Positions 4,781-28,682 of a stretch of 64,000 bases of DNA are shown piece by piece. The DNA lies in the NCBI GenBank assembly GCA_964016885.1, contig OZ024757.1, positions 14,322,001-14,386,000 of the forward strand. The letters run 5' to 3'. A program made the translations under genes and the position numbers. The first letter of the stretch is position 1. Each line of letters starts with the position of its first letter. The notes beneath the pieces were generated by a model. The model was given only the letters and a program-made list of their open reading frames with translations. It had not been told where the DNA came from and ran no database searches. Origin of the DNA: Eledone cirrhosa. Taxonomy: Eukaryota.

Positions 4781-5499
4781 CCAAATCAATGGGTGGCAGT
4801 AGTTGCAGCTGCACGCATTGAAAGACTGGTGTAGTGGCTCTGAGAATAATGCGGCTTTGCAGATCAATACAAATTGACAATGGAAACGCACTCTCGCTCG
4901 AGTTAGAACAGAACTATTGACCTTCGGGAGAAATGAAGTACACCAAATCCAATGCTCCTGGTTCTTCTTATTTGCGAATGTTATCTCGGCCAGATTAGAT
5001 ATACAATACAGTCTTCAACACATATTTCTTATATCAAACACCAATATTTGGATCAATAGAATCTTATACATCTTTCTTGTATCACAGCTTTTTTAAAAAA
5101 ATGCTTTACACAGTAGTCTTAAACATATCAGACACCAATATTTTAAAAGGACATTATTCAGTTTATCGTTAAATACAGCTTTCTCATATCACTTCAATAT
5201 TTTAGAAGTACAGTCTTAACTACATCTTCCTTATATTGTATCAAAACCGTCTTAACATTACTCTATATTTACTATTGTATTTTCACGGTAAACACTTTAT
5301 TTCACATAACATTGAATCTGAGATTTTGATATTTATTTCGAGAACAATACCTTAACATAAGAACAGAAAGAGGTGAGAGAATTCTTGCCAGATACAACCA
5401 GTTTAAATGCTAAAGGGTTAAGTTTTCCCCAAGTAAACTCAACAGAGGAACTGGTTGTAGAAGTCAGCAGTAGTATAGTAAGTCAGCTTGGCCTTTGGG

Positions 5500-5925
5500 G
5501 GTTGTTGCTGAAAGCATCTGGGATGGTGGGTGACACCATAGCCACCCATATTGTAAAGCAAGTAATACAAAATGCTGCTATACCCAATGACTGGCATAGC
5601 AGCATCATAGTCTACTGCTACAATAGAGATGCTCTAGACAGATAAAACTATAGAGGCATCAGTTGGTTAACCAGGTTGGTGTCCATCAGGGCTCTGTTCT
5701 TAGCCCTCTCCTGGGTATAACAGAAGAGTTTAAAACTAGCTCCCCATGGGAACTTATGTATATGGTAGAATTACTGAAGAAATGAAAGGAAAACAGATTT
5801 TCACTGCTCAGTGTGCAGGAAAGGAGTTGATAGAAATTTATTGCTATGTTCCAAATGCAAACTATGTGTACACAAGAGATGTAGTAGGATCTCTGGTAGG
5901 TTAGCTGTTCAATGCCAGGTGCATT
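5500..5925 (+). mobile_element. Internally deleted RTE LINE relic
   Basis: IPNDWHSSIIV, GVHQGSVLSPL and CRKGVDRNLLLCSKCKLCVHKRCS fragments homologous to 3093-4156. Confidence 0.75.
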
Positions 5926-6001
5926 TCTATATGTTTTACTGGGTCCCCATCATGATATTTCAGCGAGCCTTAGAAATGTTTAACAGTGCCCATCTCCAAG
6001 T

Positions 6002-7379
6002 GTCCCATCCATTACTAAGTTTAACATGCCACCATCTTGGAATTGTTGAGAACCAGTCTACCTGTCCTTCACTAACATATAGAACACTAATAAAAAATAT
6101 CAATTTCATTAACTGTTAATGTGTTATTTACATTTGTTAACATCTTCCACTTACTAATAAATGTCCTATTTTCCATGGGTCAGTTGGGTTGTCCACGCTA
6201 TAAAGCAACTCTGGTCACGCCTTACTTTGCTCATATAAATGTGTGTTGTTAGGGAGTGCACGTATAGTTGTCCATTGAAATTGTTGAGCTTTTGGTGACT
6301 GTAGGGATAGGACAACGGAGAGGCAATTCTCAATCCATGCCTGCTTTTTTGCTTCCCTTGGTGTGTCTCACCTTCATATAGCAACTGAACTATTCATTGC
6401 TCTCTCCCCAAACCTGAAAAGCTTACTGTTACTCTGCTTTAAATTAGTATTGGAATGCCAGGATAGGGGTGAAAGTAACGGCTTCAGGGTATGGTTAACT
6501 TATAGGCTCTCCTAGGGCCAGATAAACCATAGTCAATACCGGATTAGATGGTGAATACTTAACATAGGGTCTCCTAAACCCTGGTTTAGGGTGTATACAT
6601 CCCATACTAAACCATTGTCAATACCATGTATTTTCTATGCTTGCATGGGTCGTCGATGCTATGAGGCAAGTCTGGCCAGTTGGCTGCACCGTACGTTGCT
6701 CATATAGGGCATATTCAACATCTTGCTTGGGGTCTCCTGCTGGTGGGAATATTTGGTGGCAAGTGTCAATCCATGCCTCCTTTTTCGATACTGTCTCACC
6801 TTAATCTCTTTGTGATAGCAAGTGAATTCGGTAATAATCCGGTATTGACTATGGTTTATCTGGCCCTAGGAGAGCCTATAAGTTAACCATACCCTGAAGC
6901 CGTTACTTTCACCCCTATCCTGGCATTCCAATACTAATTTAAAGCAGAGTAACAGTAAGCTTTTCAGGTTTGGGGAGAGAGCAATGAATAGTTCAGTTGC
7001 TATATGAAGGTGAGACACACCAAGGGAAGCAAAAAAGCAGGCATGGATTGAGAATTGCCTCTCCGTTGTCCTATCCCTACAGTCACCAAAAGCTCAACAA
7101 TTTCAATGGACAACTATACGTGCACTCCCTAACAACACACATTTATATGAGCAAAGTAAGGCGTGACCAGAGTTGCTTTATAGCGTGGACAACCCAACTG
7201 ACCCATGGAAAATAGGACATTTATTAGTAAGTGGAAGATGTTAACAAATGTAAATAACACATTAACAGTTAATGAAATTGATATTTTTTATTAGTGTTCT
7301 ATATGTTAGTGAAGGACAGGTAGACTGGTTCTCAACAATTCCAAGATGGTGGCATGTTAAACTTAGTAATGGATGGGAC
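6002..7379. repeat. 545-bp inverted repeat (arms 6002-6546 and 6835-7379, 288-bp spacer)
   Basis: Arms are reverse complements with no mismatch seen by eye; identical 72-aa ORFs at 6166-6384 (-) and 6997-7215 (+). Confidence 0.95.
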
Positions 7380-7830
7380 GCCATGTGAGAAGGCGAAAGA
7401 AGCAGCTTTAGGGCATATACTTCCCATAGGATTTTCTCAATCCAGCGCCATGTGAGAAGGCGAAAGAAGCAGTTTTAGAGCGTACACTTCCCATAGTATA
7501 TCCCCTGGCAACCTAAACCCTGGTCAATGGCCGGCATATACGTCCCATAGGATCTCGTACAGCAAGATAAACCTTGGTCAATGTCAGATTAGAGGGTTAA
7601 AAAAACGGCGTATACACCCCATAGGATCTCTCACGGCCAGCTAAACCATACTCAGTGGGCGAATGGAGCAGTATAAAGACCTAAACTTCTCGTAGGATCC
7701 GCTACGGCCAGCTAAACCATGGCAGGTGAGAGGGTGATTGAAGCATTAAAGTAATGGATCTCCTACAAGCTGTTTTAGGGCGAAAGAAGCAGTTTTATGG
7801 CGTGTCCTACTGCCAACTAAACGCTGGTCA
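7380..7830. repeat. Degenerate tandem array of cccataggatctc...ggccagctaaacc(a/c)tgg and ggcgaaagaagcag motifs
   Basis: gccatgtgagaaggcgaaagaagcag occurs at 7380 and 7447; about 5 variants of taaacc(c/a/t)tggtca follow. Confidence 0.75.
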
Positions 7831-8155
7831 GAAGCACATTAATGTAGCTGGACTGTCGTCTATACGGAGGTAAGTGTATATTCATTGAAAAAAATTATAT
7901 AAACGAAATGAATGGAAGTAATTCGTACGGAATACAGATTTTCATAAAATTATTAGTGCGTTGGTCGCAAGACGATAATTTTATAATTTAAAGTAAGAGA
8001 AATTCAGAGATCGAATCCCGCATCGTCACACTACCACCAATGCACTAATAATTTTCTTGTAAAAAGTTACTCCGAATTACCTCCCTTCGTTTCGTTTATA
8101 TTTTTTTAAACCAAAAATGGCGAAAGTAGCTATAAGTATACTTAATTTGCTTAGT

Positions 8156-8318
8156 AGAATTGCGGCCTTCGCGGTGGCGTGCGAACTGCGTCTCTGACTG
8201 CCAGTCTCCATATCTGGCGTTCGATTCGTAGTGGCGTACGACTGCATAGGCCTGGGACTATTCGGGGCCGGCACATAGATGCAAGGCCCGTCCCTGACCA
8301 CCGTGAAGAATTCTTTTT
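8156..8318 (+). ncRNA. Putative Pol III structured ncRNA, copy 1 (unknown family, 163 nt)
   Basis: TATAAGTA at 8131; A-box-like TGGCG at 8175; perfect B-box GTTCGATTC 8219-8227; 5'/3' pairing cttcgcggtgg (8167-8177) with ccaccgtgaag (8298-8308); TTTTT at 8314-8318; homolog at 11675-11874. Confidence 0.55.
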
Positions 8319-8329
8319 CAAAATTTCAA

Positions 8330-8730
8330 TGATATGCAAATGAGTTTGAAGTTCATTTACATATTAGAAGAATTATATTAGAGAGAATCTTAATATATAT
8401 AGAGAATCTTAATTACACTCTTGAAGCTTCATTTACATATCTAATTTGCATATTAGAAGAAATTTTTTAGAAATATATGAGTGAGAATCTTAATTACATT
8501 TTTGAAGGCTCATTTATTTGCATATTAGAAGAAATTTTTTTAGAAATTTATTAGTGAGAATCTTAATTTTTGAAGAAGAACCTTGGAGGTTAATTACATT
8601 CTTGAAAGACAGTTGGATTCGAACCTTCTTAACTTAGTTTCTATATAAAGAGACTGTTTAGATTCTTAGAACCCACAATTTCAATTACATTCTTGAAAGA
8701 CAGTTGGATTCGAACCTTAACTTAGATTCT
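8330..8730. promoter_or_regulatory. Tandem repeats carrying octamer motifs and stand-alone B-boxes
   Basis: ATGCAAAT 8334-8341; ATTTGCAT 8444-8451 and 8516-8523; GGTTCGAATCC on - at 8615-8625 and 8706-8716. Confidence 0.45.
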
Positions 8731-9640
8731 TAGAACCCTTGAAGAGTAAAAATGTCATTACACTTAGACACTCCATCTACATTCTTTTTTATACACTTCA
8801 CTTACATTAGTTTCTTTATTATTATTACACTTTACTTACATTCTTAATACACTTCATTTACATTTTTACTATTCAAGGGAGATAACTCTAGTATTTTGAC
8901 AGTAAGAGTTACCCCCCCCCCTTATTCAAGGGAGATAATTCCGTAGTATTTGAATGGAAGAGTTACCTCCCTGTAATAGTAAAAATGTATTGAGAATGTA
9001 GTTTCTTTCCCAGATCTCGTTAAGACTGGCGAACCTTTTATTTTCAAAATAAATTGAACCCAATTCGTATATAATACGTAAACATTTCTTTATTAACAGA
9101 TAAACTGAACACAATTCGTATATATATATGTAAGCATTTCTTTATTAACAGATAGTTCGACTTGTAAATACTCTCACTCGTTACGGCAAACACCACACAG
9201 CATATGACCGAGAAGGCTGAAATGAAATTAAGAAAACTATAAAAGCTATTCGTTGTCAATAAAAAATGTTAAATTCATAAAATGTCTTTTGCTCAGAAAA
9301 AAAACGGGCTGAGTTAGTCGAGGTGGTATCACGTACGTTGAAAATTAAGCGATATCGATCACCTTTGATTACGATGATATCTAAAAGAAATTCATGGCAA
9401 AAGCGAGACGGGTGTAATATTTACCCTGGCCAAAGACGATGGATCTCAAAAGATTCTGGTTTGGAAGGATGGAAGAAGTAGTGGACAATGTTCAACATAA
9501 AATAAAGCTTTACTTTACCTGCGTAAAATAGTAAAATCCAAGTTTTTAACGTTTTTTTTATATTCAGGTTAGAAAACGTGAAGTTCTTCCAGCAGTCATT
9601 TTATTTTTTCTAAACAGTTACCTAATGCGCATGTAAATAA

Positions 9641-11075
9641 TAATAATAATGAAATTATTGTGTAAAGTGCTCAGGTGCACTACAACTCGTCAAAGGTGTA
9701 TGGTCGCACCATAGCCATGTACATAGAATAATTGTTTCTACTTTTTGGCACAAGGCCAGCAATTACCCAGTACATTACTGGTACTTTATTTTATCGACCC
9801 CGTAAGGATGAAAGGCAAAGTTAACCTCGGCGGGAATTGAACTCAGATCGTAAAGGGACGTAACTATGCTGGAAAGCGTAATCCAACCCTCTACCGATAC
9901 TGCCAATTCACATAGAATAATACACAAATGTCAGGGAAGTACATGTGTGTATGTGTTAGCTGTAGTGTTGGCGGATCTCGGGAAGCATGGAGGCCTTAAA
10001 GGATGCAGTGTCTCGACAGCTAACAAATGATGCAGGTAGTTTGTTCCATGCTTCAGCAACTCTGAGCGTGAAAAAATGTTTCCGAAATTCTTAGTTTGTG
10101 GGCATGTCCACGTGTGTTTGGCAACATGGTTAACAATTTTGTGGGTGTTTACCAAGTCAGTTGCCAGGCGTCGGAGCTTCAATGTATCCATGCCCAGGGA
10201 AGCAAGGCGTTCAGAGTATGGTAGATGCCTGATGGAGGGTATTCACTTGACTACCGTGACTACCTCTCTGACACAGGATTCCATCAGTTTGGCGATGCAA
10301 CTAGTAAGACGACTGGACGATAGTTCACAGGTGATGTGCGGTCACCCTTTTTGAACAAAGGAATGACACTGGCAGTTTTCCACTGTTCTGGAGTAGCACT
10401 GTTGTTCAGACAGAATTGGAAGAAGCGTGATAACTGGTGCAGAAGGAAGTACCCACCACGTTTAAGAAGCAGGTACGTAACACTATCAAGACCAGGAGAG
10501 GCATGGTTGCGTTTATTTTTTAGGTGACGTCGCAGCATTGCAGGTGTAAATTCCATGGTTGTAATAGAGTCCGGTGTCATAGGTGGTGGAGATGGTACAT
10601 ACACTCTGGTCTTAAATAGTGAAAATGCCTGCATAGCATTCAGCAATGAGCTCTGCGCATTCCTTGGGGTCGTCAGTAACCTGGCTTGTGTGGGGATTGC
10701 GAAGAGGACCAACTCGAGAGTGAGGCCTCTGCTTTGAGTGAACATACTTCCAGAACACCTTACTGTCAGAGCTGGTTGCTATGCGCTGCTCAACTTGAAG
10801 CACTGCCTTTTTTGTCACCTGGATGTTCTGGTGTTGACATCTCCAGAGTCGTAGAACTCAAGCCAGTTTGGCCGTTGCAAATCGGTGCAGTAACAGTTCC
10901 AGTCTGCTTTATTCCAGTCAAAGTGAGCAGTTTGGAGATGAGGGATAGATTGGCAATGATCATAGCATGATCAGAGTCACCTAAACGTTCCTCAGCAGTA
11001 ACACTAATGACCGTTTCAGGAGTAGTGGTGAAGAGTAGGTCAAAAGTGTTGTCACCTCTCGTTGGGGAGGTGCAA
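9641..11075 (-). mobile_element. CR1-group LINE relic with the RT core deleted; SINE inserted in its 3' UTR (3'-end copies at 17425-17700 + and 18128-18490 -)
   Basis: SPGLD...PEQWKTASVIPLFKKGD...NYRPV, C-terminal RVAEAWNKLPAS, shared tail gagttgtagtgcacctgagcact...(att)n. Confidence 0.85.
9729..9910 (-). mobile_element. Abundant tRNA-derived SINE (representative; roughly 15-20 full or partial copies, e.g. 13259, 20450, 24225 +, 34283, 37560-38650, 39190, 43200, 45015, 53485-53880)
   Basis: On -: tRNA-like head with B-box gagttcaa(a/t)tccc, conserved body gcctttcatccttacggggtcgataaaataaagtaccag, tail ggccttgtgccaaaagtagaaacaatt(att)n. Confidence 0.9.
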
Positions 11076-11674
11076 AGTGTTTATGTGTAGTTGGGCTTTA
11101 CAATCGTGAGTTCGATTCTCACACCGAGCTTTGTGTTGTGTTCGTGAGACACTTTATTCCAAATCACTAAGCTGTAGGAATGAGTTTAAATCTGTACTCA
11201 GAGCGAAAAATTAAGCTGCCATGCTTCGTTCGGTGACAGAAATAGAGAAGGCAGGGGCCTCGTTTGCCTTAAAAATGTGAGGGACAAACATTCGTTGATT
11301 CTTAAAGAAGCATGTTAGTATTGCTTAGGAGAAGGTATGTCTAGTGAAGAAAGTTTATGTAGCTTGAAAGAAATGTATTTTTGTATTTTATCTTAAAAGA
11401 AAGCATGCCGCGTGTGGGTGAAGAAAGCCACAATAAATGTAGCTGAGAAGGTTTAATTTATTAGAAGAAAAAAATATATACTGTATAAAGTGAAGAACGT
11501 TTATATATGTATTCTAAAATTCTTAGCAAGAGAAAACATTACATACCTCTTTGAAAGTAATATCCAGAATGATTAAAAAAAACAAAAAAACTGGAAGTCA
11601 TTTAAGAAAGAAGAGTTTCATAAAGTGGAAGTAACTCTAAACAAAAGGGAGAAAATCCTAATCAAATTTAGAGC

Positions 11675-11874
11675 AAAAAAGGGGGGGGGGGGTAGGACGG
11701 ATTCCTCGCGCGGTCCAGGACGCAGGTCAGCATATAGCCAGCCTGCAAATAAGTCCAAGCTGCCCTTGCCGCGTACCACCACAACGATTCGATCTTCAGA
11801 CACATAGAATGGTCACTCCATACATAAGTAGGCAACGAAGTCCGAACCGCATCGCCATGCGAAGCAGCAATTCT
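11675..11874 (-). ncRNA. Putative Pol III structured ncRNA, copy 2 (diverged paralog of 8156-8318)
   Basis: TATAAGTA (11899-11892) 25 nt before AGAATTGC exactly as in copy 1; A-box-like TGGCGATGCGG; B-box GATCGAATC (11794-11786); cttcgcatgg pairs with ccgcgcgagg; T6 at 11680-11675. Confidence 0.5.
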
Positions 11875-13449
11875 AGTGAGTAAATTAGTAATACTTATAG
11901 GTCAAATTATTATTATTTTTTTTTAAAATATATAGAAACAGAAAGAAAGCGAGATAACACGATATATTCCGGATGTTACCTCACTGTCATTCCGTTCCTA
12001 CATATATATATATATTCTTCTATATATTAGAAGAAATATGTATAGAAGAATATATATATATTAATTTCGAAACTACTAGGATTTTGTACATATATACAGA
12101 ACAATTAATATGTAAGTAAATATACTTACTTAAGATGGTAACATGTATTTTACTGACAGATCTGTTTCTGAATATAAGAATACGGTAATACGAAAACTAC
12201 AAATACCGAATTTTTCAACCCGTTCGTAGGTTGGGTACATCAATTGAGAAATATTTATTATATTCTATCTTAAACATTTTAAATTAAATCCACGCTTGAA
12301 ACCGTCCTGGTTTTATAAAACAATATCCCTACTAACATAATATTAGAACTTCTCTTCAAGTAATGTCCTAAATACCACAGAAAAGTCTGAAGTCAATTTA
12401 TATTACTGGACTAAGTTTATTTGTTGTAGTTACATATGACCAATACCTTATTATAGGTTAACTGGGAGTTATACTAGATAAATTATTGAGGGAGTTAAGT
12501 TGGACATGATGGAGAAGACATTGCCCTGGCGAGGGTGATGCGCTGGGACGGCCACTCTACCTCGCACGAGCAGCCTGGGCTGGTCCCCGAACGCACCAGG
12601 TTGCCACTAGAGATGTCCCAACAGATGAGGGGCCTACCTATGCGATGATTGTCATACCGTCCCCTCGATCCAGCTGAGAAAGGACGTTCATAGGACGGAG
12701 GCCGAGTTGGTTCGATATCGCGTAAGTCATCTCACATAGCCCGATCTGGTTGAAAACTGAAACGATATCGATCTAGTTAATACTGAACAGTTAACCTATG
12801 ATTACAATGGTGTTAAGAAAATTCGTTCAAAACATAAATTTCATCATCATGGCGAGACGGGTGTAATATTTACCCCCAAAATATGAAAACTTCAAAATCT
12901 ATAGGAAAAATATAAAGGGTAATTTTCGAAAAAAGATCTAACTAAATATCTGAACGTCTGATTTGTTCAGAATACACCTAAAGCAAGAGGGGAAACATAA
13001 TTTTCACTTCTAACGCAGCAATTTATAGACTTTGATAATATTTTTCAAAGAAGCATGAAAAGTCGTCCAAATGATTTCATACAGGCAACTGAGCTGCTAC
13101 AGGGGGAAAGTATTTCGTTAAATTCCTGACATTATGAGCATTCCCAAAATTAATTGAAATGCGTGGGTAAGAATGTTGAAATAGTTGACTAGGAAGAGAA
13201 GTAAAAATAAAACCTAGCAAAATATTTCAACATATTATAATACTCAAGAGCTGAATAATAATTGTTTCTACTTTTGGCACAAGGCCAGCAATTATCTCAG
13301 TGTATTACTGGTACTTTATTTTATCGACTCCGTAAGGATGAAAGGCAAATTTAACCTCGGCGGTATTTGAACTCCGATACTGCCAAATCACCGCCCTAGA
13401 GCTGAATAATAAAAATGTTAACACTGATCACTTGATCTGTGATTATGAT

Positions 13450-13950
13450 AAACACTATATTGTTTGCTGAAGGAGTTCTCTGAATTCGGATGCAATAATA
13501 CCCGCATACCTGGTCCTGACTTCCTTATCTACCAATGCTTCCCACTTTAGTCTGTAGGTTTCCCTGGATCTGACATGTTTGTGGGCTTCTTTGGCTTTAT
13601 GTAGTCTCATGCTGCAGATAACTAGATGCTGATCAGTTGACAGCCCCCTCTCTTAATACGAACATCCAGCTCAGAGACAATAACAAAATCAATTATTCGT
13701 CTCTGCCCCTGATTCCCCTTATGCCATGTATATCTATGAATGTCTCCATAATAGAGTCCATCCGACTAATCCCGCACTCGCCTCTCGTATAGAGACACCA
13801 GGGTAACAAGAAGCTATCCATCGGTTCCATATACCTACAGAACCTTCCAAAGCAGATACCGTGGAACGCGGTCGTATGCTTTTTGATGTCTACAAAGGAA
13901 GAAAACAACCCTTCGCAGTACTCCCACGATTTCTCAAAGACCCGCTTAAT
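13450..13950 (-). mobile_element. Rearranged RTE LINE fragments (RT piece upstream of AP-endonuclease piece)
   Basis: FEKSWEY...FVDIKK(A)YDRVPR followed on the same strand by HRYTW...IIDFVIVSELDVRIKRG..STDQHLV. Confidence 0.7.
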
Positions 13951-14368
13951 GTAAAAAACAAAAATTCTACGCTATTTCATTAAATTGCTCCAAAATATAT
14001 TGAAAGATGTAACGGGGTTGTATTGTAATAGTAACACGTTACCACGTGGTTTACGATAGCTAAACAAAACTACTGTTTAAATAGTTGTTGGTGACATTAT
14101 GAAGGAACCTAAAAATAAAATGTTTCAATGAAACTGTTCAACATAAAATAAAGCTATACTTTACCTTCATAAAACTGGAAAAATCCCAGTTTTTAACATT
14201 TATTCGAGGGTTCGGAAAATATGGAAATCTTTAAGCAGCCATTTTTTTCCCCGAGATAAATATATACCAAACACGCATGCGCAATAAATAAATATATATA
14301 TATATATATATGTGTGTGTGTATGTGTGTATATATATATATATTCACATGTATTTACATTTATATATA

Positions 14369-16846
14369 TCAGATGAAAGAATGGTATTTAACTAATGCAT
14401 TGGTACGCGATGGGGCCCACCCACAGCCCCGGCGGACAGAATGGACAAGGCGTTTCCCCGGAGGACGGCAAGGGAGACGCGCTGGAAAAGCCACTCCAAT
14501 TCGCGGGGCTCACACCTGCGGCTGGCCAGCTCAGCGCCTATGGTGGTGAGTAAGGAGGTAACCATGGGGCCGAGGACACCAGAAGTCTCCACTGCCAGAG
14601 GAACGACCGCAAACCTGTCGGAGAGCGACCGGTATTTGAGGAGTTTGGCCCCCTCAGCCCGACGTGCAGCAGAACCTGGGTCAGTCGCACACTGCACCAG
14701 GTTCTGCTGCAGAAAGTGTCGTGGCATCCCAGACGAGGGGTTTGCCACCGCGGAACGGGAAGTTGGTCATGCCATCTGGCCTTTTGCCGTCCCCTCGATC
14801 CAACCCCACCGGCTCGAGCTGGGAAGGGAAGCCTGCAGCGTCCAAGCCATGCTTAATGACCTCGTTGAGGGCAGTATGGCGTGGAATGCGGCCGGCACTG
14901 TGGCGACAGGAAAGCGGGTGGAGGCCGGAAGAATCCACGGTGGAACCGCAGCGACATTGGTGTGGCTGGCAGATGCGGAGGCCGAGCCTCAGGGAAACGC
15001 CGATTCGCATGCTATGGTTGTCTAGCTGCGTGCCAGTGGAGAAGGAGGGCAGGGCATGGAGCCAAGTACCACGAAAACAAGGAAGCGGTGCTGGTCAAGC
15101 TGGCGCGTGATCCTGTCTGGGGCCAGGCTGCACTGAATGGCATCCCAAGTGCGTTGGGGGGACTTGACGTCAACAGGAGGAGGAGGAGGAGGGACGTCTA
15201 CTGGGCTAAGTCCCAGCCGGTCCCAGGTCTCACAGGCGGCCTCACGTTCTCTGAACACAGAGGGTTCTGTTGTGTTTTGAAGAACCCTGCTGACGAGGAC
15301 GCGGCACGAGGTTACCGACGAAAGATACGCCGGCAAAGCTAGTGAGATCGGGGACCGGAGGCCAAGGCCGCCATACCTGACCGGTAAAGTGGCCTGTGGC
15401 CTGTTGCCACCCTATGTCGTCAAACTTGACGTTGCATATCCCTTTGGCTGCTGCTCGGATACAAGTATCGAGGTCAGCGAGAAGAGATGTCTGGGTGTAA
15501 CATGGAGGAGCTTCGGCCTGGCGAAGCAGTTCCTCAGCAGAAAGAGAGCTGGGTGGCCGTCAATCAAGCCCAGTCGGCTCGTGAGAGTCTGGAGCTATTG
15601 AAGCCTGGACCTGATGGTGGAGCGGATGGATCGGTGACCCGAGGATGAGGACATCCTCTTTGGGGGTCACCTGAACCTGGCGGAGAATGGACCGCACGTC
15701 CAAGACAGAGGCTGTAAAGCTCGCAGCATCGAGGCTGACGTTCACCACCTCCGAGTTGACCTGGAGGCCGATTCCCGCCAGGGCAGGAACCACCGATTGA
15801 AGGTCATGGCAGACCGTCCGTACGGGCCCGCCCAACGTAGCATCATCCAGATACCAAACGTTGAGAGGGGCCGTGATACTCCGGGCGATGTGGTCAATAC
15901 CAAGGACGAACAGGAGGGGCCCCAAAGGGTCGCCCTGTTGGACCCCAGTAGCCGAGGGTATGACCGTATCAGCAGCTAGGGGCTCCATATGACAGGTAGG
16001 CAGAGGGAGCTCGGCTGAGGCAGGCCTCGAGCAGATGATCCCGGCATAAAGATTTAAAGGCAATCCTCATGTTAAGCTTGACAATGAGGTGCCTCGAGTC
16101 CCTGGATGCCGGTTCCGATGGGCAGCTGCTGAAGAACTGCCTGATTGCATGAGCGACCCCCTCACACGCCGACACCCAGCTGCACCGGATTAAACTCCTC
16201 ACCCAGTTCGTGTGTGACGGATTTGCAGATCACCTTGGCAGCCAGCCTCCGGAAGACATTTCCCACAGCAATGGGGCGTATGCCACCCTCTTTCTTCCTG
16301 ACAGCGGCGAGGCTAGCCGAAAAAAAGAGGCCTCGGGCGGAAGGGTCGAGGGCACCATGAATGAGCCTATTGGTGAGCGCCACAATTGCACTCAGAAGGA
16401 AGCGCCCGGCCTCAGCGGAGAGGGGGGGGGGGGTGTCAACTCCTTGAGGTGGCCTGGTCGGAGACCATCAGACCTCCGCAGCTGTTAGCTGGGAAGGACC
16501 TGATGGCGGACAAGATATCTGCATCAGTAGCCACAAGGAGCAAGTGGAGGTGTGGGTCTGAGATCAGGGTGTTTGAGCCGCGAGCAGCCAGGACCTCCTC
16601 GGTGGGTTGGGGGACAGTGTCCTCTGAGGCAACAACTCTGACTGCGGCCGAGACATCACCCATGATAAGTTTTGCGCTTACCTGGTCACGCAAACGCTTG
16701 GCGGTGGCCTCGGGGGTGGAGAATAGGGTGGGGTGTGTGGCGTCCCTTGGCACGCTTGGAATGGGCGCTCGCCCAAATGACGAGACATTGGCCTTGACGA
16801 AGGCTGCTGTTGACCGGCCGCCCCGGGCAGGGAGAGTTGACAGGAC
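14369..16846 (-). mobile_element. CRE-clade (RLE-type) non-LTR retrotransposon, 5'-truncated and frameshifted
   Basis: GIRPIAVGNVFRRL, QLGVG, GVQQGDPLGPLLF, WYLDD, zinc finger CRC...HPLSC, RH, KRPDG...VWDAT, KLLKY, PLAVETSGVLG; flanked by TA/TG microsatellite. Confidence 0.85.
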
Positions 16847-19134
16847 TAATATATGTGTGTCTGTATACGTAAATATATGTATTTTCATAATTTGCTGAAA
16901 GAAATATATTTTATTGAACCGAAATGAATGGAAGTAATTCTTTATTATTCGTTCATATGTAAGATATTTCTCGTAATAAAAATTGTTAATACGTTGCTGG
17001 TTGTGTGGTATGGTGAATGTGTCAAGAGGTAAAGATAAGGGCTATTTTGTTAGTTAAGACATTGTATCCATAGTCATTCGCATGTATCATTTTACCTAAT
17101 CTTTCAAATCTATTGTCAAACTTCGTTGGATTCCTCGTTAATTGAATTGTATATGTCAGATGCTGTCTTCAGTTGGCAGTTGGTGTCAACCCTTGCCTAT
17201 GGTCATGAGTCTTGGGTAATGACCGAAAGAATATGATCGCGAATACAAGCGGCCGAAATGGGATTCCTCCGAAGGGTCTTTGGAGTAACGTAGTCCAGAA
17301 AGTTAGAGTTAGTTACATCAACTTTGATTGCTAGTTTATTTTTACCGACCCCGGAAGGACGAAAAGCAAAATTGACCACATATTATTTGAACTCAGAATG
17401 GAACGAATGCCATAAACTAATTAAACACTTTTTCACGCTCAGAGTTGCTGAAGCATGGAACAAACTACCTGCATCAGTTGTTAGCTGCCGAGACACTGCA
17501 TCCATTAAAACTTCCATGCTCCCTGAGATGTAGAACACTACACCTGATGTCCTCTCTCCATACACACATGTACTTCATGACTCCTACACTGTTCATTTTC
17601 CTGACATTTCTACATTATTCTATGTACTATACATGCACCTTTGATGAGTTGTAGTGCACCTGAGCACTGTAAACAATAATTTCATTATTATTATTATTAT
17701 ATAAAATGGAACAAATACCGCAAGGCGATACCCTGGACGATCGCAACAACTAAGGGAAATAACTAAGATTGTTCCTATTGCTAAAGATTTGGGAGTTACT
17801 TTCCTTCGTTACGCAGGTTATTGCCAAAAATGACAGATTTTAGCAATTTCGATTCTTTTTTATATTCGTATGTTAGAGACTAATCAATCCTCGCTACCTC
17901 ATACCGGCTCTCCAACCGTGACTATCCACTCTTAACATTAACTGCAATATGAAGGATAAACGCCGAGCAAGATGGTTATATAACATCCGTGAACTTGGCT
18001 GGTCCCACTTTAGGGGATCCAGCCGGATCAGTTGCTTCTGACAGGAGTGTTTGTCTGATGGATAAGGACTGATTTGTGGTTTTTGCTGGTGGTCGGATGT
18101 TGATGGGTTATAACGTGGGGATTTTAAATAATGAAAATTATTGTGTACAGTGCTCAGGTGCATTACAACTCATCAAAAGTACATAGAATAATGTAGAAAT
18201 GTCAGGAAAATGAACAATGTCTGAGTCCTGACATAATGAAAATTGTGTACAGTGCTCAGGTGCACTACAACTAATCAAAGGTGCATATATGGTACATAGA
18301 ATAATGTAGAAATGTCAGGAAAGTGAATAGTATACGAGTCATGATATACACACAGATACATGCGTGCGTGTGTACGGAGGGGGAATATCAGGTGTAGTGT
18401 TGGCGAATTTCGGGAAACATGGAAGTTTTGAGGGATGCTGTGTCCCGACAGCTAACAACTGATGCACGTAGTTTGTTCCATGCTTCATTTTAAGGAAATT
18501 ATTACCAAACAAATCCTTTATTAAAGCTATGTTACTTGTGAATACATAGCTATGAGAAACATATACACCAGGTCCGAACACAAAGGAACCAATCTCCCAC
18601 TGTCACTGGCTCCGTCTCTCACTTGTGGTTAATTTAACTCGCATTCCGTCGGTTACGACGATGAGTGTTCCAGTTGATCCGATCAACAGAACAGCCTGCT
18701 CGTGAAATTAACGTGCAAGTGGCTGAGTATTCCACAAACACGCTTACCCTTTCCGTAGTTCTTCGGGAGATTCAGCGTGACAAGGCTGACCTTTCGAATT
18801 ACAGGTACAACTTATTTTTGCCAGCTGAGTGGACTCGAGCAACATAAATTAAAGTGTCTTGCTCAAGGACACAACTTGCTGCTGGGAATTGAACTCACGA
18901 ACTTACAATTGTGAGCCGAATACCCTAACCACAAAACCACGTGCCTTAACTTGTGGGTAACAAGCAACTACAAACTAACGAGGCCACTCGACCTGCTAGA
19001 AATAGCAGCCACATTTCGTTCGAATAAGTTTACAAAAAGGAGATATGGATAATATAATCCTAGATAAAGGTGTATGAAAAACAAAAACAAAAAAAAAAGA
19101 GGGTAAGGGCACGGCATGAATACCCTTTGCTCAC

Positions 19135-19577
19135 CTGAGGTTAAATATTTCAGCAGCCACAATGTCTACAGCTGTTTCTCCCTGATTAACGCGAGGAAAG
19201 TATATGCTGCGTATTGTGATTGGTCGAAATCGTGTTCTCAACAACCAATCAGATTTCTCTTTACATTAAGAATTTGTTTGTTTATAATCGCTTCCTCGAC
19301 ACCAAAATAACGTGAATGTTCGGCCAAGGTGGAACTTGAACCAGATTCTCTCCATCTCTCATTAATTTACCATCGTTCAGGTCACCTGCCCACAATCCTT
19401 CTCGACAGATACGTTGTCACACGGATCAGATTCCGCTAGCCACATTGCTACACCTGGATTTCGTAAAAAAACAGTGTTTCTTTTTCTTAGAAAAAGAGTT
19501 TTAAGTATTTTTTAGTATAATGACAATCTGCCTTACCCGGAGGAGTTGATTGACTATTCATATAATATCGTTTTTTG
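19135..19577. promoter_or_regulatory. Candidate bidirectional promoter with divergent non-coding first exons
   Basis: Opposed CCAAT boxes (ATTGG 19219-19223, CCAAT 19245-19249); + donor G|GTGAGT after 19577; - donor CAG|GTGAGC after 19135; locally CpG-containing. Confidence 0.5.
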
Positions 19578-19804
19578 GTGAGTTAGTACTGACCGAACTC
19601 TCTATCTCTTTATCTAAGTATCTATCTACCTCTCTGTCTATATATCTAAGTATCTATATCTATCTATCGATCTATGTATATAAATGTGTGTGTGTGCGTG
19701 CGTGATTCTACGCCCACACACTGTATAACCCTTTATTTACAGTTTAATAATCTACCACAATCTAGTGTATATATATATATATGTATGTATATATATATAT
19801 ATAT

Positions 19805-20056
19805 TAATCAAAATATATACTTTATTATATATATTACAGAGGTACTGTGTTGTTTTTTCAGTACGTCCTCATCAGACAAAATATATGATTTGATATATGA
19901 CATACCGCTACACCAGTATTGGCAATACTGGAATTGTATAATCAAGACTGTAGCGGTATGTCATATATCAAATCATATATTTTGTCTGATGAGGACGTAC
20001 TGAAAAAACAACACAGTACCTCTGAAATATATATAATAAAGTATATATTTTGATTA
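19805..20056. repeat. Fold-back insert (108-bp arms) with hammerhead core; probable Penelope-like element remnant
   Basis: Arms 19805-19912 and 19949-20056; CTGATGA at 19986, stem II, GAAA at 20024. Confidence 0.7.
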
Positions 20057-22076: not shown

Positions 22077-23337
22077 CGAGGGGGGGTCAAAAAATTTGCG
22101 GAATTTTTCAGAAAATAATCTATTTTTCAAAAAATATGATTTACCTTTAATTTATTTTTCTACATAGTTGACATCCAGGTCAATACACTTCACAAGGCGA
22201 TGCTTCCAGCTTCGTAAGCCATCTCTAAAGAAAGTTAAAGGCCTTGTTCGAAGCCATGTGTTGGCAGTGTTTTAGCTTCTTCAACACCACTAAAACGAGT
22301 CCCTTTTAGCATTGCTTTGAGTTTTAGAAAGAGGAAAAAGTCTGATGGGGCTAAATCTGGACTATAAGGTGGGTGAGCAAGCACGTCCCATCGAAATTCT
22401 CGAAGAACTTCTTTTGCAACCTGCGCTGGTGCATTATCATGGTGAGACCATGAGGTTTCCCTTTTCGTTTCTTGACTAATGCCTCTTTCAGCTTCCTTAA
22501 AACATTTGCAAGGTAAGCTCCTGTCACAGTTCTTTGACCTTCAAGATAATCTATTATTATCACCCCATCTGAATCCCAGAAAATGGTGGCCATCACTTTT
22601 TGATCCGACTTTTGAGATTTGAACTTGATTGGCCCCGATGATCCACTGTTTTGACTGCTGTTTGGATTCAGGATCATACTGGTAGATCCAGGTTTCATCT
22701 CTGGTGATGATTCTGGTCAGGAAATGCTCTTCATCAACTTCAATTTTGTTTAATATCGCCAAAGACAGATCACTTCGAAGAATCAGCAGATCAGGGCGCA
22801 ACGCTTTTGGGACCCATCGCGCTGAAAGCTTGCTTAGTCCCAAATTATCGTGCAGAATTGAATTTGCCGAACCATATGAAATGTCTAGGGACTTAGCTAA
22901 CTGATTAACTGTTATTCTTCGATATTCTTCAATTAAAGTCTGAGCAGCCTCAACGTTTTGGTCATTTTTTGATGTTCCTAGTCTTCCACTGCGATGGTCG
23001 TCTTCAAGGTCGTCTCTCCCTTGTTTGAATCCACTTGTAGACACCAGTTTTCTTTGGAGAAGTAGTACCGTAAACTTTAACTAAAGCCTCCATAATCTGT
23101 GTCCCTTTCCATTTGAGTTTCACCAGAAACTTGATATTCGATCTTATCTCAAAATAACTATTTTCCATTGTTCCAAAAAGAGTGTCAGTACTGTACAATA
23201 GTCCGCGCATAACTGACTGCAAGTGACTAATAGCAAGGTAAACACCCAGTGACAATGTTCTGACATGTTTAATATTGTTTTAACCTGATTTTTTTCTTGC
23301 TACAATAAAATTCCGCGAACTTTTTGATCCCCCCTCA
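22077..23337 (-). mobile_element. Full-length but inactivated mariner transposon
   Basis: TIRs cgaggggggg(t)caaaaa...gcggaattt, TA flanks; frameshifted transposase with LSARWVPKAL, TRDETW, KVMATIFWD and HPPYSPDLAPSDF motifs. Confidence 0.92.
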
Positions 23338-24418
23338 TATGTATACACACTTCAACAGCATTCTAATAAATATTGCCTGTACAGGTAATCAAAGTGTGTA
23401 TACATTTTTGGGGGACACCCTGTGTGTGTCCCTTTTGTTACCATATTTCTAATAAAAGACACTGCCTATGATTTTCAAATAATTTTGTAAAAGTAATCGA
23501 GAAGCTGGAGAGATTTTGTAATACAACTAACTTCTTCGTTATTAAACTGTTGTTTGGAACGTAACTTATCAAAAAGGGTTTAGTGATTTTTATTATTACA
23601 CCCATCTCCAAGACAGGTGTTATGGAGTTTTCAGGTGGGTGAACTGCAGAAAACGAGAATTTACAATGGCTTTGAAGGTTGAATTCATTCAAAACACTTA
23701 AAAGCAGACCTGTCAACTCTCCCCGTCCAACAAAGAGAAATCCAACCCACTTTGGAGTGGGTGACAGATGTCTTCTCTTGTGAAAATGGATATAGATTTC
23801 ATTATGTAAAATCTCATTTATCCCCGTTTGGGTTTTTAAAGGTTAGCAGGTTCGCAGGCCAGCAATTGAAGGAGAGAGGCAAGTCAATTAAATTGAGCCC
23901 AGTGCATTACTGGTGCTTTATTTTATCGACCTCGTAAGGATGAAAGGTAAAGCTGACCTCATGTAGACAATTCAACAACCATATGGCATTTATATGGTGA
24001 CAATGGGTCTATATTATTTCAGAGCAATATGATATATAATGTAGACCAGCAGTTGCCAACCTTTTGGACCTCACAGACCACTAAATTAATTTTTTTTAAA
24101 AAGATAAATACATTAAAATTTATCTGCAGACCACTGGTTAGTGACTGCTGATGTAAAAAGTTCAATGACCATATGGAATTTATATGGTGATAATGTGTCT
24201 TTATTATTTCAGTGCAATAAAATTCCAGCAGCGGTTAACTTTGCCTTTCATCCTTATGGGATCGATAAAATAAAGTACCAGTAATACACTGGGGTAATTG
24301 CTGGCCTTGTGCCAAAAGTAGAAACAATTATTTCAGATCAATGTGCTATATAATGTTTATAGTTCAACAACAATATGAAATTTATATTGTGACAATGTGT
24401 CTATCTTATTTCAGAGCA

Positions 24419-24649
24419 ATGTGGTATATTATGGAGACAGTTCAACGATCGTATGAAATGTCTGAAAGGTTGATAAGGGCTATAAGTAACTGGAGCTTGG
24501 TGGACCAACCTTTTGATGATGATATTGAGGACCTGATCAATAATGGAGCGGATGTGAACCAACCCCATGGCTCATTGCTACCCCTGCACTGTACATGCAT
24601 GGTTAGTGATGCTAAATGTCTGCAACTTTTACTACAGAACGGGGCCAGG
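24419..24649 (+). CDS. ASB8: Ankyrin repeat and SOCS box protein 8, first coding exon (77 codons)
   Basis: MWYIMETVQRSYEMSERLIRAI...GADVN..HG.L.PLHC.CMVSDA.C matches the ASB8 N-terminus as I recall it; acceptor tttcag at 24414, donor AGG|GTAAGT in phase 0. Confidence 0.9.
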
Positions 24650-25089
24650 GTAAGTACAATTGAAGAAACAGAACATTTTGGGGGTTTAGGGATTTGAAAA
24701 AAGAAATTGTTTCCCTTTATAAGATGTGACAGTGTTTATTAATGGTGGTGGGGGTGGTGGTGGTGGTGTGTGGTGAAGAATATAGCTTCCCAATCACATG
24801 GTTTGGGGTTTGAGCCCACTGTATGACACCTTAGCTAAGTGACTTTTATATGAGATTCACCCAAGATCTGGGAATGAAATTTTCATGGCAAAACTGGATG
24901 GAAGATTCTGAGATATTTGTGTATATGTATATACATACATATATACAAAGACATAGATATAACAAAGAAAGTGTGATAAGGAACCAGGTGGACCTTAGGG
25001 TAGTAGAGTGGGTAATAGGAAAAGAGTCAGGACCTCGACGGCTGAGCTCCGGACTGATTGGATCTAGCTGTCGGGGTCCTGACTCTTTT

Positions 25090-25138: not shown

Positions 25139-26418
25139 GGTGCGGATGATATTTGTTCGCAATTTTCAACTGCTAATTTTATGCAAATTTTTTTTACTTC
25201 CGTTGTCACTCTTGTCTTCATAAAAACAGTGACTATATTTCCATTATTTATTTTCAGAATAATTGATTATGAATAATTTTGAACCTCCAAATTTGTGGAA
25301 GAGACACAGAGTTCTTCTTGGAATCTGCGCCGGGAGGACAAATAAGGAAATTTCAGACTTTCTCAGCGTCAGCAGGAGTATGGTGGAAAAGGTCAGAAAG
25401 GAATTGGAAGATTCAGGATTCGGCTATGAAGCAACATCAGAGAGGAAAACACATGATCGACGATCTGACGCCTTCAGAACGCCCGAGTTTGTTGCTGAAG
25501 TTCAGGATATCATCAACAATGAACCTAGTAAGTCGATGCGTGCCATTGCAAGGATGAAAAGCTCATTAGGCTGGTGGTACATGAAGACATTCGCTACGTT
25601 TCATACAAGATGAGGAAAGGACAATTTCTGTCAAAGGCGATGCAAGAAAAGCGACTGAAGCACGCAAAGAAGCTGATCAACAAGTTGAAACACCCACTGG
25701 AGCCAGACATGCTGTGGTTTTTCTCCGACGAGAAAAACTTCTGCCAAGACCAGAAGATCAACTCCCAGAACAACAGGTGGCTTGCTGTCTCATCCAAAGA
25801 CGTGCCCAGAGTCATGTAGACAAAGTTTCCAGCGACAACATTGATCTTGGGTGTCGTCAGCAGTCAAGGTGACGTCATGCCACCTCACTTCTTCTCTGAG
25901 GGCCTCAAGCTGAACACTGATGGCTACATCCGCATTCTGAGCGAGCTAGTAAAGCCCTGGATCGACCAGGTAGTTGCAGGTAGGCCATACGTGTGGCAGC
26001 AAGACTCAGCGCCCTGCCAATCCAGCCGAAAGACCCAAGCCTGGCTGTCAGAGAACTTCGTCGACCACACTTCACCTGACATTTGGCCTCCCAGCTCGTC
26101 TGACTGCAACCCCCTCGACTTCTTTGTGTGGGGTGCAGTGGAACAAGACACCAACAGATCTAGCTGCAATACGAAAGATGATCTGAAGGCCAGGATCACA
26201 AGTGCCTTTAGGGGCCTAAGTCGGGGGACAGTGATGAAGGCCTGTAGCCGGTTCCGAGTCCGTCATCAAAGCCAATGGTGGGTTTATCGAGTGAGATCGA
26301 AAGAATAAGTCATGAAGACAAACTGACCCAACTTTGATAAATAAATCTTAAAAAATAAAACTACTGTGTCATTTTTTCCTAGACAGTAATCTTGCGAACA
26401 AATATCGTCCGCATCCTG
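25136..26418 (+). mobile_element. DD37D (maT-type) Tc1/mariner transposon, inactivated, in the ASB8 intron
   Basis: TIRs cagggtgcggatgatatttgttcgcaa / ttgcgaacaaatatcgtccgcatcctg with TA flanks; FSDEK, QQDSAP, then 37 residues to NPLD; frameshift and in-frame stop. Confidence 0.92.
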
Positions 26419-28049: not shown

Positions 28050-28682
28050 GTCAACGACTTGGATGGTTACCTGCGGACGGCGCTGCATTATGCAGCAGAG
28101 AAAGATGAGCATTGCATACTGATATTACTGCAGCACGGTGCAAATATAAATGCACGAGACGGTAGCGGCAATACCCCGCTGCACTTGGCGGCGGATAAGA
28201 ATAAGAGTGAATGTGTGCAGGTATTGCTGCAGCAGGGAGCTGACCCAGATGTCCGCAATGACAATAGCGACACACCCCTCAGCTGGGCAGCACTGAAGGG
28301 GAACCTCAAAATCATCAAGCTACTTCTTGAGTACAATGCCGATCTGTGCAACAAGAACACGAGGGGCTACACACCTTTAATGCAGGCTGCCTATGTGCAG
28401 GGCAAAGGTTTGAACTGTTTAGACGACACGAGTCTTGATTTGTTAGTCAAAGCTTCCGGTCCTTTAGGAGTACACAGTAAATGTGTAGACTTGATCGCAG
28501 AACTTTGTCAAGACAGCAAGACCAAGAAGTTGTTGTTATCGCTATGTAGGAACCCGTGTGCGCTACAAAACCTTTGCTGCCTGGTCATACGTAAAGCCCT
28601 GGGTTACTGCTATCTACCTGATGTCATACCTAAACTACCCCTTCCTCTTCAATTACAAAAATTGCTCATGTTGCAAACTTAG
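28050..28682 (+). CDS. ASB8: ASB8 second coding exon (ankyrin repeats plus SOCS box); spliced protein 287 aa
   Basis: ttttcag|GTC phase 0; LDGYLRTALHYAAEKDE, TPLHLAA, TPLSWAALKGNL, SOCS box LQNLCCLVIRKALG...LPLPLQLQKLL; AATAAA at 29066. Confidence 0.92.
   Translation, partial: VNDLDGYLRTALHYAAEKDEHCILILLQHGANINARDGSGNTPLHLAADKNKSECVQVLLQQGADPDVRNDNSDTPLSWAALKGNLKIIKLLLEYNADLCNKNTRGYTPLMQAAYVQGKGLNCLDDTSLDLLVKASGPLGVHSKCVDLIAELCQDSKTKKLLLSLCRNPCALQNLCCLVIRKALGYCYLPDVIPKLPLPLQLQKLLMLQT

Follow-up and report, generated by a model that had tools for sequence, protein, structure and literature searches.

Two diverged, convergent copies of a predicted RNA polymerase III type-2 gene in the octopod Eledone cirrhosa

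The locus considered here raises the question of what is encoded by two GC-rich islands, copy A (8131–8318, plus strand) and copy B (11899–11675, minus strand), that lie in convergent orientation 3.4 kb apart in a stretch of 64,000 nucleotides (nt) of Eledone cirrhosa (contig OZ024757.1, positions 14,322,001 to 14,386,000), the whole of which is called the window below. A preliminary description, made from the letters alone, had taken them for a pair of diverged RNA polymerase III (Pol III) genes of an undescribed family, laid out like the VA, EBER or vault RNAs and either host-encoded or left by a DNA virus or large transposon. We find that A and B are two members of a larger multi-copy family, and we consider it somewhat better than an even chance (roughly 0.55) that they are host Pol III genes whose small folded RNAs bind protein through a bulged hairpin near the 3′ end.

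Promoter layout of the two copies

As first described, the islands stand out by composition, with 57% GC in A and 55% in B against 37% in the window. They are homologous over 8077–8311 and 11957–11701, where 170 of 263 alignment columns are identical (65%; E ~1e-15). The homology sets in about 54 nt upstream of a TATA-like box (0 of 500 shuffles as good) and reaches its 3′ limit at the terminal stem of the predicted RNA; beyond these limits no A–B homology was found on the upstream side (491 of 500 shuffles as good) or on the downstream side (276 of 500). The features of the promoter and of the predicted transcripts are as follows.

8077–8118, plus strand: upstream pyrimidine/T/A-rich element, common to copy B (0 of 500 shuffles as good)
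8131–8138, plus strand: TATA-like box of copy A (TATAAGTA), at -31/-24 if the start is G8162
8162–8318, plus strand: predicted transcribed unit of copy A, 157 nt (163 if the start is A8156), start placed by the spacing in PMC10137851
8175–8185, plus strand: weak A-box-like motif of copy A, 5/9
8219–8227, plus strand: B-box core of copy A (GWTCRANNC, 7/7)
8314–8318, plus strand: predicted Pol III terminator of copy A, T5
11915–11957, minus strand: upstream element of copy B, homologous to 8077–8118
11892–11899, minus strand: TATA-like box of copy B (TATAAGTA)
11675–11868, minus strand: predicted transcribed unit of copy B, 194 nt (200 if the start is A11874)
11847–11857, minus strand: A-box-like motif of copy B, 8/9
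11786–11794, minus strand: B-box core of copy B (GWTCRANNC, 7/7)

The sequence elements named in the preliminary description are all present. In both copies TATAAGTA starts exactly 25 nt before AGAATTGC, with a 17-nt spacer (8131/8156 in A, 11899/11874 in B); allowing at most one mismatch, this pattern occurs twice in the window, where 0.02 matches are expected, and none of 100 shuffles reached two. The promoter block around it (8130–8163 / 11900–11867) is gapless and identical at 28 of 34 positions, with exact spacing, compared with 65% identity overall. The A-box-like TGGCG, placed near +20, lies at +20 in A and +18 in B from the start then proposed; the motif agrees with the consensus at eight of nine positions in B and five of nine in A. 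The B-box core is exact in both copies, which agree with the 11-nt consensus at 8/10 (A) and 7/10 (B) positions, and the first run of at least four T is T5 in A and T6 (11680–11675) in B, where it follows a run of C12 (11692–11681). A type-2 or type-2-hybrid Pol III promoter was taken to require that the A box follow the start by about 11 bp and precede the B box by 30–60 nt; the gap between the boxes is 32 nt in A and 51 nt in B. On both strands of the 64 kb, only A and B have a TATA-like box, an A box and a B-box core in this order, by a layout filter that was written after both copies had been seen. No third copy was found in the window by three profile models (the third applied to 5000–20000 only) or by BLAST.

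The position of the start can be estimated from known genes of this layout. TATA-like boxes lie at -31/-24 and box A lies 11 bp from the start in PMC10137851. Applied to the window, this spacing makes the G after T the first nucleotide in both copies (8162 and 11868) and puts the A box at +14 (A) and +12 (B), and the resulting geometry of start, A box and A–B gap is close to that in PMC10137851 and PMC12498455. A start at G8162/G11868 is more likely, judged by this spacing, than the A8156/A11874 of the preliminary description, and the same applies to RNAs of 157 and 194 nt rather than 163 and 200. The earlier start nevertheless keeps some plausibility, because the GAAUU found there can pair with 3′ AAUUC/AAUCC (5/5 pairs in A, 4/5 in B). 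Copies A and B are predicted, on these signals, to be Pol III type-2 genes with a TATA-like box, and would be transcribed as such.

Predicted fold and further copies

The copies were compared with a simultaneous fold-and-align program written for this analysis and run with four parameter sets. Five predicted structural elements are referred to below.

8167–8308, plus strand: predicted terminal stem of copy A, 11 bp, 8167–8177 with 8298–8308
8254–8294, plus strand: predicted 3′ bulged hairpin of copy A, the best-supported shared structure
11704–11864, minus strand: terminal stem of copy B, 9/10 pairs, 11864–11855 with 11713–11704, of low probability in B alone
11718–11756, minus strand: 3′ bulged hairpin of copy B, geometry as in A, upper-stem sequence different
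11816–11834, minus strand: extra hairpin inserted in B relative to A; two of its pairs become better with the letters found in most other copies

The best-supported structure common to A and B appears to be the 3′ bulged hairpin, which the preliminary description had missed. It would have a GGAC/GUCC base, above which a bulge of 6 nt interrupts the 5′ strand and a stem of 5 bp leads to a small stem-loop at the tip, and it is present in both single-sequence ensembles. Between GGAC and GUCC the copies are of equal length and align as an ungapped block of 39 nt, in which four of the five upper-stem pairs are changed on both sides and still Watson–Crick (5 and 3 of 2000 shuffles as good). The program recovered this hairpin in all four parameter sets, and the consensus energy of the 3′ domain was equalled by only 3, 0, 9 and 4 of 300 nulls of simulated neutral divergence, counts that are uncorrected for the choice of domains. 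The hairpin has, by these predictions, moderate two-copy support.

The remaining parts of the fold proposed earlier fare less evenly. The terminal stem pairs as written and was recovered in three of the four parameter sets; the differences between A and B are one-sided changes only, and in B the stem has a probability of about 0.12 and is absent from the minimum-energy fold, which leaves weak support for a predicted stem common to both copies. The long apical stem with the B box is the preferred fold of B, while A prefers another register. The second hairpin can form in both copies (6/7 and 7/7 pairs), but it cannot coexist with the 3′ hairpin, which has better support, and A's own fold lacks it; a fold with two states, in which these two hairpins alternate, is possible on the modelled pairings. 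The statement that pairing is kept despite divergence is supported for the 3′ hairpin alone (0–9 of 300 nulls as good), and no particular 5′ arm has support in the models. An RNAalifold structure computed from a MAFFT alignment was discarded, as it rested on a misaligned 5′ part.

Further members of the family were seen in contigs that look genomic. The seven runs listed by a sequencing-run search with copy A as query, four of which contain it, belong to a single study of a single organism; none is recorded as RNA, which has no bearing on expression. Depths and variants over 7800–11990 were taken from four runs, together at most two samples of one study that may be the source of the assembly; their contigs cover 29–30 of 30 bins and therefore look genomic. 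Depth of contigs is not copy number, and overlapping contigs inflate it; with that reservation, contigs that match exactly have a depth of about 10–13 (run X1), whereas the summed depth over copy A is about 220 at 8200–8212 and 140–260 in both flanks, so that the flanks are as deep as the body of A. One contig at 8323–8345 has a depth of 83. Over copy B the summed depth is 95 at 11775, 1172 at 11817, where the variant is carried by 42 contigs, and 548 at 11834. Two contigs look like paralogues, one over 8249–8507 with 18 other letters that runs past the terminator and one over 11735–11892 with 12 other letters that reaches the TATA box, and a 512-nt contig is identical to 11298–11809 without a difference. 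The plain reading is of several to tens of family copies with shared flanks, and because the flanks are shared the family would have spread by DNA duplication.

The variants also bear on the fold. Among the variants listed (40 of 200), seven lie inside the bodies, of which none breaks the shared model and four improve a proposed pair, two of the improved helices having been defined after the variants were seen. The four in copy A cluster in the loop region 8200–8212, where one breaks A's private apical stem and one creates a helix that B has; each of the three in copy B turns a weak or absent pair into G-C. Because the letters of other copies improve pairs, the copies in the window, most of all B, may have decayed to some extent.

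Two further observations were made on these contigs. At 8210 the window has A and all listed contig depth has C, which makes the A of copy A either a private allele or a mistake in the assembly. A contig of depth 50–66 joins 9393 to 11093 (29–33 letters on the short side; the letters between are not known), hinting at related units that lack the stretch of short and long interspersed elements (SINEs and LINEs).

Several results weigh against the reading of A and B as host genes for a conserved folded RNA. Apart from the narrow sampling and the caution due to depth, the DNA around and between the copies is largely repeated too, as expected of a mobile or duplicated unit, and the A box of copy A is weak. 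On its own, copy A folds better than shuffles (z -3.56, 0/200), whereas copy B does no better than they do (z -0.01, 102/200). The double changes in the 3′ hairpin depend on the register, since in a register with a gap they appear as the co-insertion of 2 bp. The 5′ arm was never significant (212, 130, 205 and 162 of 300 nulls as good), and fold-and-align of the whole RNA was borderline (18 and 2 of 150). After realignment by sequence only, neither domain beats neutral divergence (139 and 37 of 300; 72 and 48 of 150). Covariance models built from A only found B end to end, but B obtains fewer bits from the model with A's own fold (12.0) than from the one with no structure (17.4); the 24.1 bits reached by a shared-fold model are circular because the shared fold was B-informed, and that model costs A 17 kcal/mol relative to A's own fold.

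Kinship and origin

Comparison with known RNAs, which the preliminary description had suggested, was carried out against Rfam, and no family matched either copy at the gathering score or at E up to 10 (chance hits only); the models for vault, Y, VA and EBER RNAs were likewise without a match even at E up to 10. A gathering-score scan of the whole window gave a single match, the tRNA head of a SINE at 59644–59701. ARAGORN at its default finds no tRNA gene in either copy, and its relaxed 'pseudo-tRNA' calls are at chance level (31–39% of shuffles at the same cut-off); a true tRNA gene was rejected, the cloverleaf having an energy of +1.1 against -26.9 kcal/mol for the free fold. Rfam gave no tRNA match to the copies. 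Reading frames over both bodies are without a Pfam match, so that a protein-coding reading was set aside, as was an antisense guide against local SINEs (a 4.5SH-like mechanism), for which the window holds no significant match. Ten metagenome matches to the 5′ pattern were all due to chance, with no TATA and no B box. Such a cephalopod family was not found in the open-licence literature, subscription papers and repeat libraries being outside the scope; octopus repeat libraries, for example the supplement of PMC13282606, could hold it as an unclassified repeat. With the layout present in both copies and no Rfam match, the proposal of an undescribed family of Pol III type-2 layout with a TATA-like box is supported, and the family is real and apparently uncatalogued.

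Among known kinds, the lineage-restricted Pol III RNAs come closest, as represented by rodent 4.5S and ape snaR: the octopod family has the layout of 4.5SI/4.5SH and resembles snaR in its spread, and belongs to neither. Like the copies described here, the rodent 4.5SI and 4.5SH genes have type-2 A/B boxes, a TATA-like box at -31/-24, a T-run terminator and a narrow lineage (PMC10137851). The 4.5SI genes lie several together, a few kb apart, and the 4.5SH genes exist in many copies within a longer duplicated unit (PMC10137851), to which the octopod copies are similar. The rodent RNAs, however, are 94–98 nt long, compared with the 157–194 nt predicted here, and their transcription is proven (PMC10137851), whereas the octopod copies are predicted genes and show no sequence kinship to them; in addition, 4.5SI and 4.5SH have a clear parent SINE (B2 and B1), and no such parent was found among the repeats of the window. 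The ape snaR genes are likewise a structured Pol III family with diverged subsets and segmental duplication together with flanking DNA (PMC3045588), but snaR is about 117 nt long, derived from Alu/7SL and served by a plain type-2 promoter (PMC10498592), while the octopod copies keep a TATA-like box. NF90 is the known partner of snaR, and a protein partner of the octopod RNA is proposed by analogy.

In the mechanism that we favour, the TATA-like box, A-like box, B-box core and T-run, which stand in fixed order and spacing, would work as in established type-2 genes, with TFIIIC on the A and B boxes and TFIIIB on the TATA-like box. Pol III would start at G8162/G11868, or 6 nt earlier, and stop in the T-run. 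The ends of the RNA are predicted to close the terminal stem, and the 3′ part is predicted, with moderate two-copy support, to present GGAC/GUCC, the 6-nt bulge and the 5-bp stem as a shape that is kept while its sequence varies. That the RNA serves as a small protein-binding scaffold or decoy, and not as a base-pairing guide, is a guess by analogy with snaR, 4.5S and VA RNAs, and binding through the 3′ hairpin in particular is likewise a guess. The family would have spread by duplication at the DNA level and may descend from a tRNA-type head. The octopod lineage is best known for massive RNA editing, and a bolder version of the mechanism, which we regard as a long shot, is that octopods evolved multi-copy VA/EBER-like Pol III RNAs as decoys for proteins that bind double-stranded RNA (dsRNA), such as ADAR and Dicer, and so tune RNA editing or silencing.

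The rival to be taken most seriously, although we think it unlikely, is that the copies are selfish or passenger DNA. They could represent a SINE-like family of low copy number, or a SINE source gene, whose head is of tRNA type; or they could be a module that travels with a non-autonomous DNA transposon or a duplicated segment. The 3′ hairpin would in that case help the element to move, for example by being recognised by the reverse transcriptase of a LINE, and would not serve the host. The family is multi-copy, its flanks are repeated, much repeated DNA lies between A and B, and the contig of depth 50–66 runs from 9393 to 11093; the upstream element is an arm of an inverted repeat and recurs at 16858–16940 beside a non-LTR (long terminal repeat) element. 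The first 72 nt of A (nucleotides 13–84) fit the arm spacing of a tRNA exactly, with 15/21 pairs and 7/9 invariant letters, a fit equalled by 20 and 33 of 5000 shuffles when pairs and invariants are counted and by 403 and 388 when pairs are counted alone, and a tRNA-type head of copy A is plausible from its letters. SINEs make up 11.6% of the Octopus vulgaris genome (PMC13282606), and the copies may have in common with the tRNA-derived SINEs of molluscs an A/B-box head whose spacing is tRNA-like, with a part unrelated to tRNA behind it (PMC4758252). Unlike mollusc SINEs, the copies of the family have the upstream promoter and flanks in common, are of low depth, and show no tail or target-site duplication. 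Retroposition would not copy an upstream TATA box or flanks, both of which the copies keep. Their depth is four to five orders below that of the resident SINE, summed depth being in the hundreds as against about 1e7, so that this is not a high-copy SINE, although depth is only a rough guide. No target-site duplication was found for the two copies readable in full (the longest shared flank words are 7–8 nt and AT-rich), an A-rich or microsatellite tail is lacking, and 34 nearby frames gave no transposase match. Whether A and B could be the two terminal inverted repeats of a single old transposon was considered separately. This is not supported, though still conceivable: no target-site duplication and no transposase were seen, and parts of the interior (9200–9339) are single-copy.

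The viral and vault-like readings draw on the same layout and are decided mainly by hallmarks. Paired ends, a mid-molecule B box, the size and two close, diverged paralogues recall VA-I/VA-II and EBER1/2, which are arranged in such pairs, and TATAAGTA contains TAAG, which we take to be a word of baculovirus late promoters. The predicted copies resemble VA RNA and EBER1/2 in their length of about 160 nt, A/B boxes and terminal stem with long arms; VA and EBER genes have type-2 promoters (PMC10137851), and EBER2 has an upstream basal element according to a title cited there. That an endogenous DNA virus or Polinton left the pair behind, with an RNA that acted as a dsRNA decoy for the virus, is nevertheless the least probable of the origins weighed here. 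The GGGU/ACCC tetrastem, which defines VA RNA (PMC6599070), is missing, GGGT being absent from both copies; the copies face each other across 3.4 kb instead of lying in tandem, and the family is multi-copy in a host genome without viral context. No viral or transposase Pfam domain was found among 34 reading frames in 5778–13980, three patterns gave 0 matches in viral contigs and blastn gave none in phages, these sets holding few animal DNA viruses. Because the host genes 4.5SH and 4.5SI share it (PMC10137851), a TATA-like box with A/B boxes is not specific to viral RNAs. A very diverged cephalopod vault or Y-like RNA, bound by a TROVE-domain protein (TEP1 or Ro60), seems to us improbable, if a little less so. 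The promoters of vault genes are of the type-2-hybrid kind and the 5′ and 3′ regions of the RNA pair; little is conserved outside the boxes, and homology searches have difficulty with them (PMC7058938, PMC10498592), and the predicted copies share with them the promoter type, the paired ends (weak in B) and clustered paralogues. The validated or predicted vault RNAs listed in those two papers come from deuterostomes and one trypanosome. The predicted 157–200 nt exceed the 80–140 nt of vault RNAs (PMC7916137). Here the B box is central, with about 90 nt and a further hairpin domain behind it, whereas the B box of vault RNAs lies near the 3′ end. The Ro60-binding words of Y RNA, a known motif used as a test, are both absent from A and B. 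By Rfam and these hallmarks the family is not vault, Y, VA or EBER, and neither the specific kinship nor the viral origin put forward earlier finds support.

There is also little to recommend a silent relic, in which a decayed tRNA-like pseudogene or repeat was duplicated with its flanks and the hairpin is inherited or due to chance pairing in GC-rich sequence; we rate it as very unlikely. The unremarkable folding of B and the dependence of the structure tests on the alignment would fit it, and several mutually exclusive helices fit both copies, so that two GC-rich sequences are easily overfitted. Promoter spacing, B-box core, terminal stem and T-run, however, survive about 35% divergence, the 3′ hairpin exceeds the neutral-divergence nulls, and variants of other copies improve pairs. 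The reading of A and B as host Pol III genes is the one that we prefer.

Lineage-restricted Pol III RNA families such as 4.5S, snaR and BC1/BC200 are known mainly from mammals. For one of them, 4.5SH, a real role in countering SINE exonisation was recently given (PMC10137851). If expressed, the octopod family would be a defined and testable new RNA class in octopods, would offer a native Pol III promoter to genetic tools for cephalopods, and would illustrate how tRNA-type heads give rise to such genes; should it prove to be a mobile element, the result is ordinary repeat annotation.

Surroundings in the window

The window appears, from its sequence, to be host-type octopod DNA. It has a GC content of 0.37, abundant microsatellites, SINEs and LINE fragments, and an ASB8-like ankyrin/SOCS-box gene on the plus strand with exons at 24269–24697 and 28050–28682; the exon at 28050–28679 shares 91% identity with an ASB8-like protein of Octopus vulgaris, compared with 65% for the next match.

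The copies lie among repeats of several kinds. On the 5′ side of copy A, a perfect inverted repeat of 545 bp (6002–6546 / 6835–7379, spacer 288 nt) is either a very recent foldback or an assembly artefact, and degenerate tandem repeats of about 70 nt (7379–7810 and 6454–6590) have no Rfam match at the gathering score. Closer to the copy, an imperfect inverted repeat like a miniature inverted-repeat transposable element (7889–7965 / 8036–8107) is multi-copy in genomic contigs; its right arm is the upstream element common to copies A and B. Directly 3′ of the terminator of copy A, 8352–8730 consists of AT-rich repeats of 70–90 nt, multi-copy in contigs, two of which hold a B-box-like word on the minus strand (8624 and 8715). 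A palindromic element of 130 nt follows at 8859–8989, with 31-nt arms that are 90% complementary, and the resident SINE-like repeat at 9727–9911 has many copies in the window and a very high copy number, with a summed depth of about 1e7 (9760–9899). Two local repeat pairs, 9388–9426 with 12837–12875 and 9484–9663 with 14130–14315, are each in the same orientation.

Farther away, the non-LTR retrotransposon beside which the upstream element recurs spans 14390–17040 on the minus strand; it is GC-rich and frameshifted, has an RVT_1 match at 15563–16066, and presumably resembles HERO/CRE. The frames 22351–23080 (minus) and 25820–26308 (plus) look to us like remnants of Tc1/mariner transposases; both were scanned, with no Pfam match at E 0.01. 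An open frame of 910 codons at 54611–57343 (minus strand) contains 6-residue tandem repeats and has a marginal match to DUF1388.

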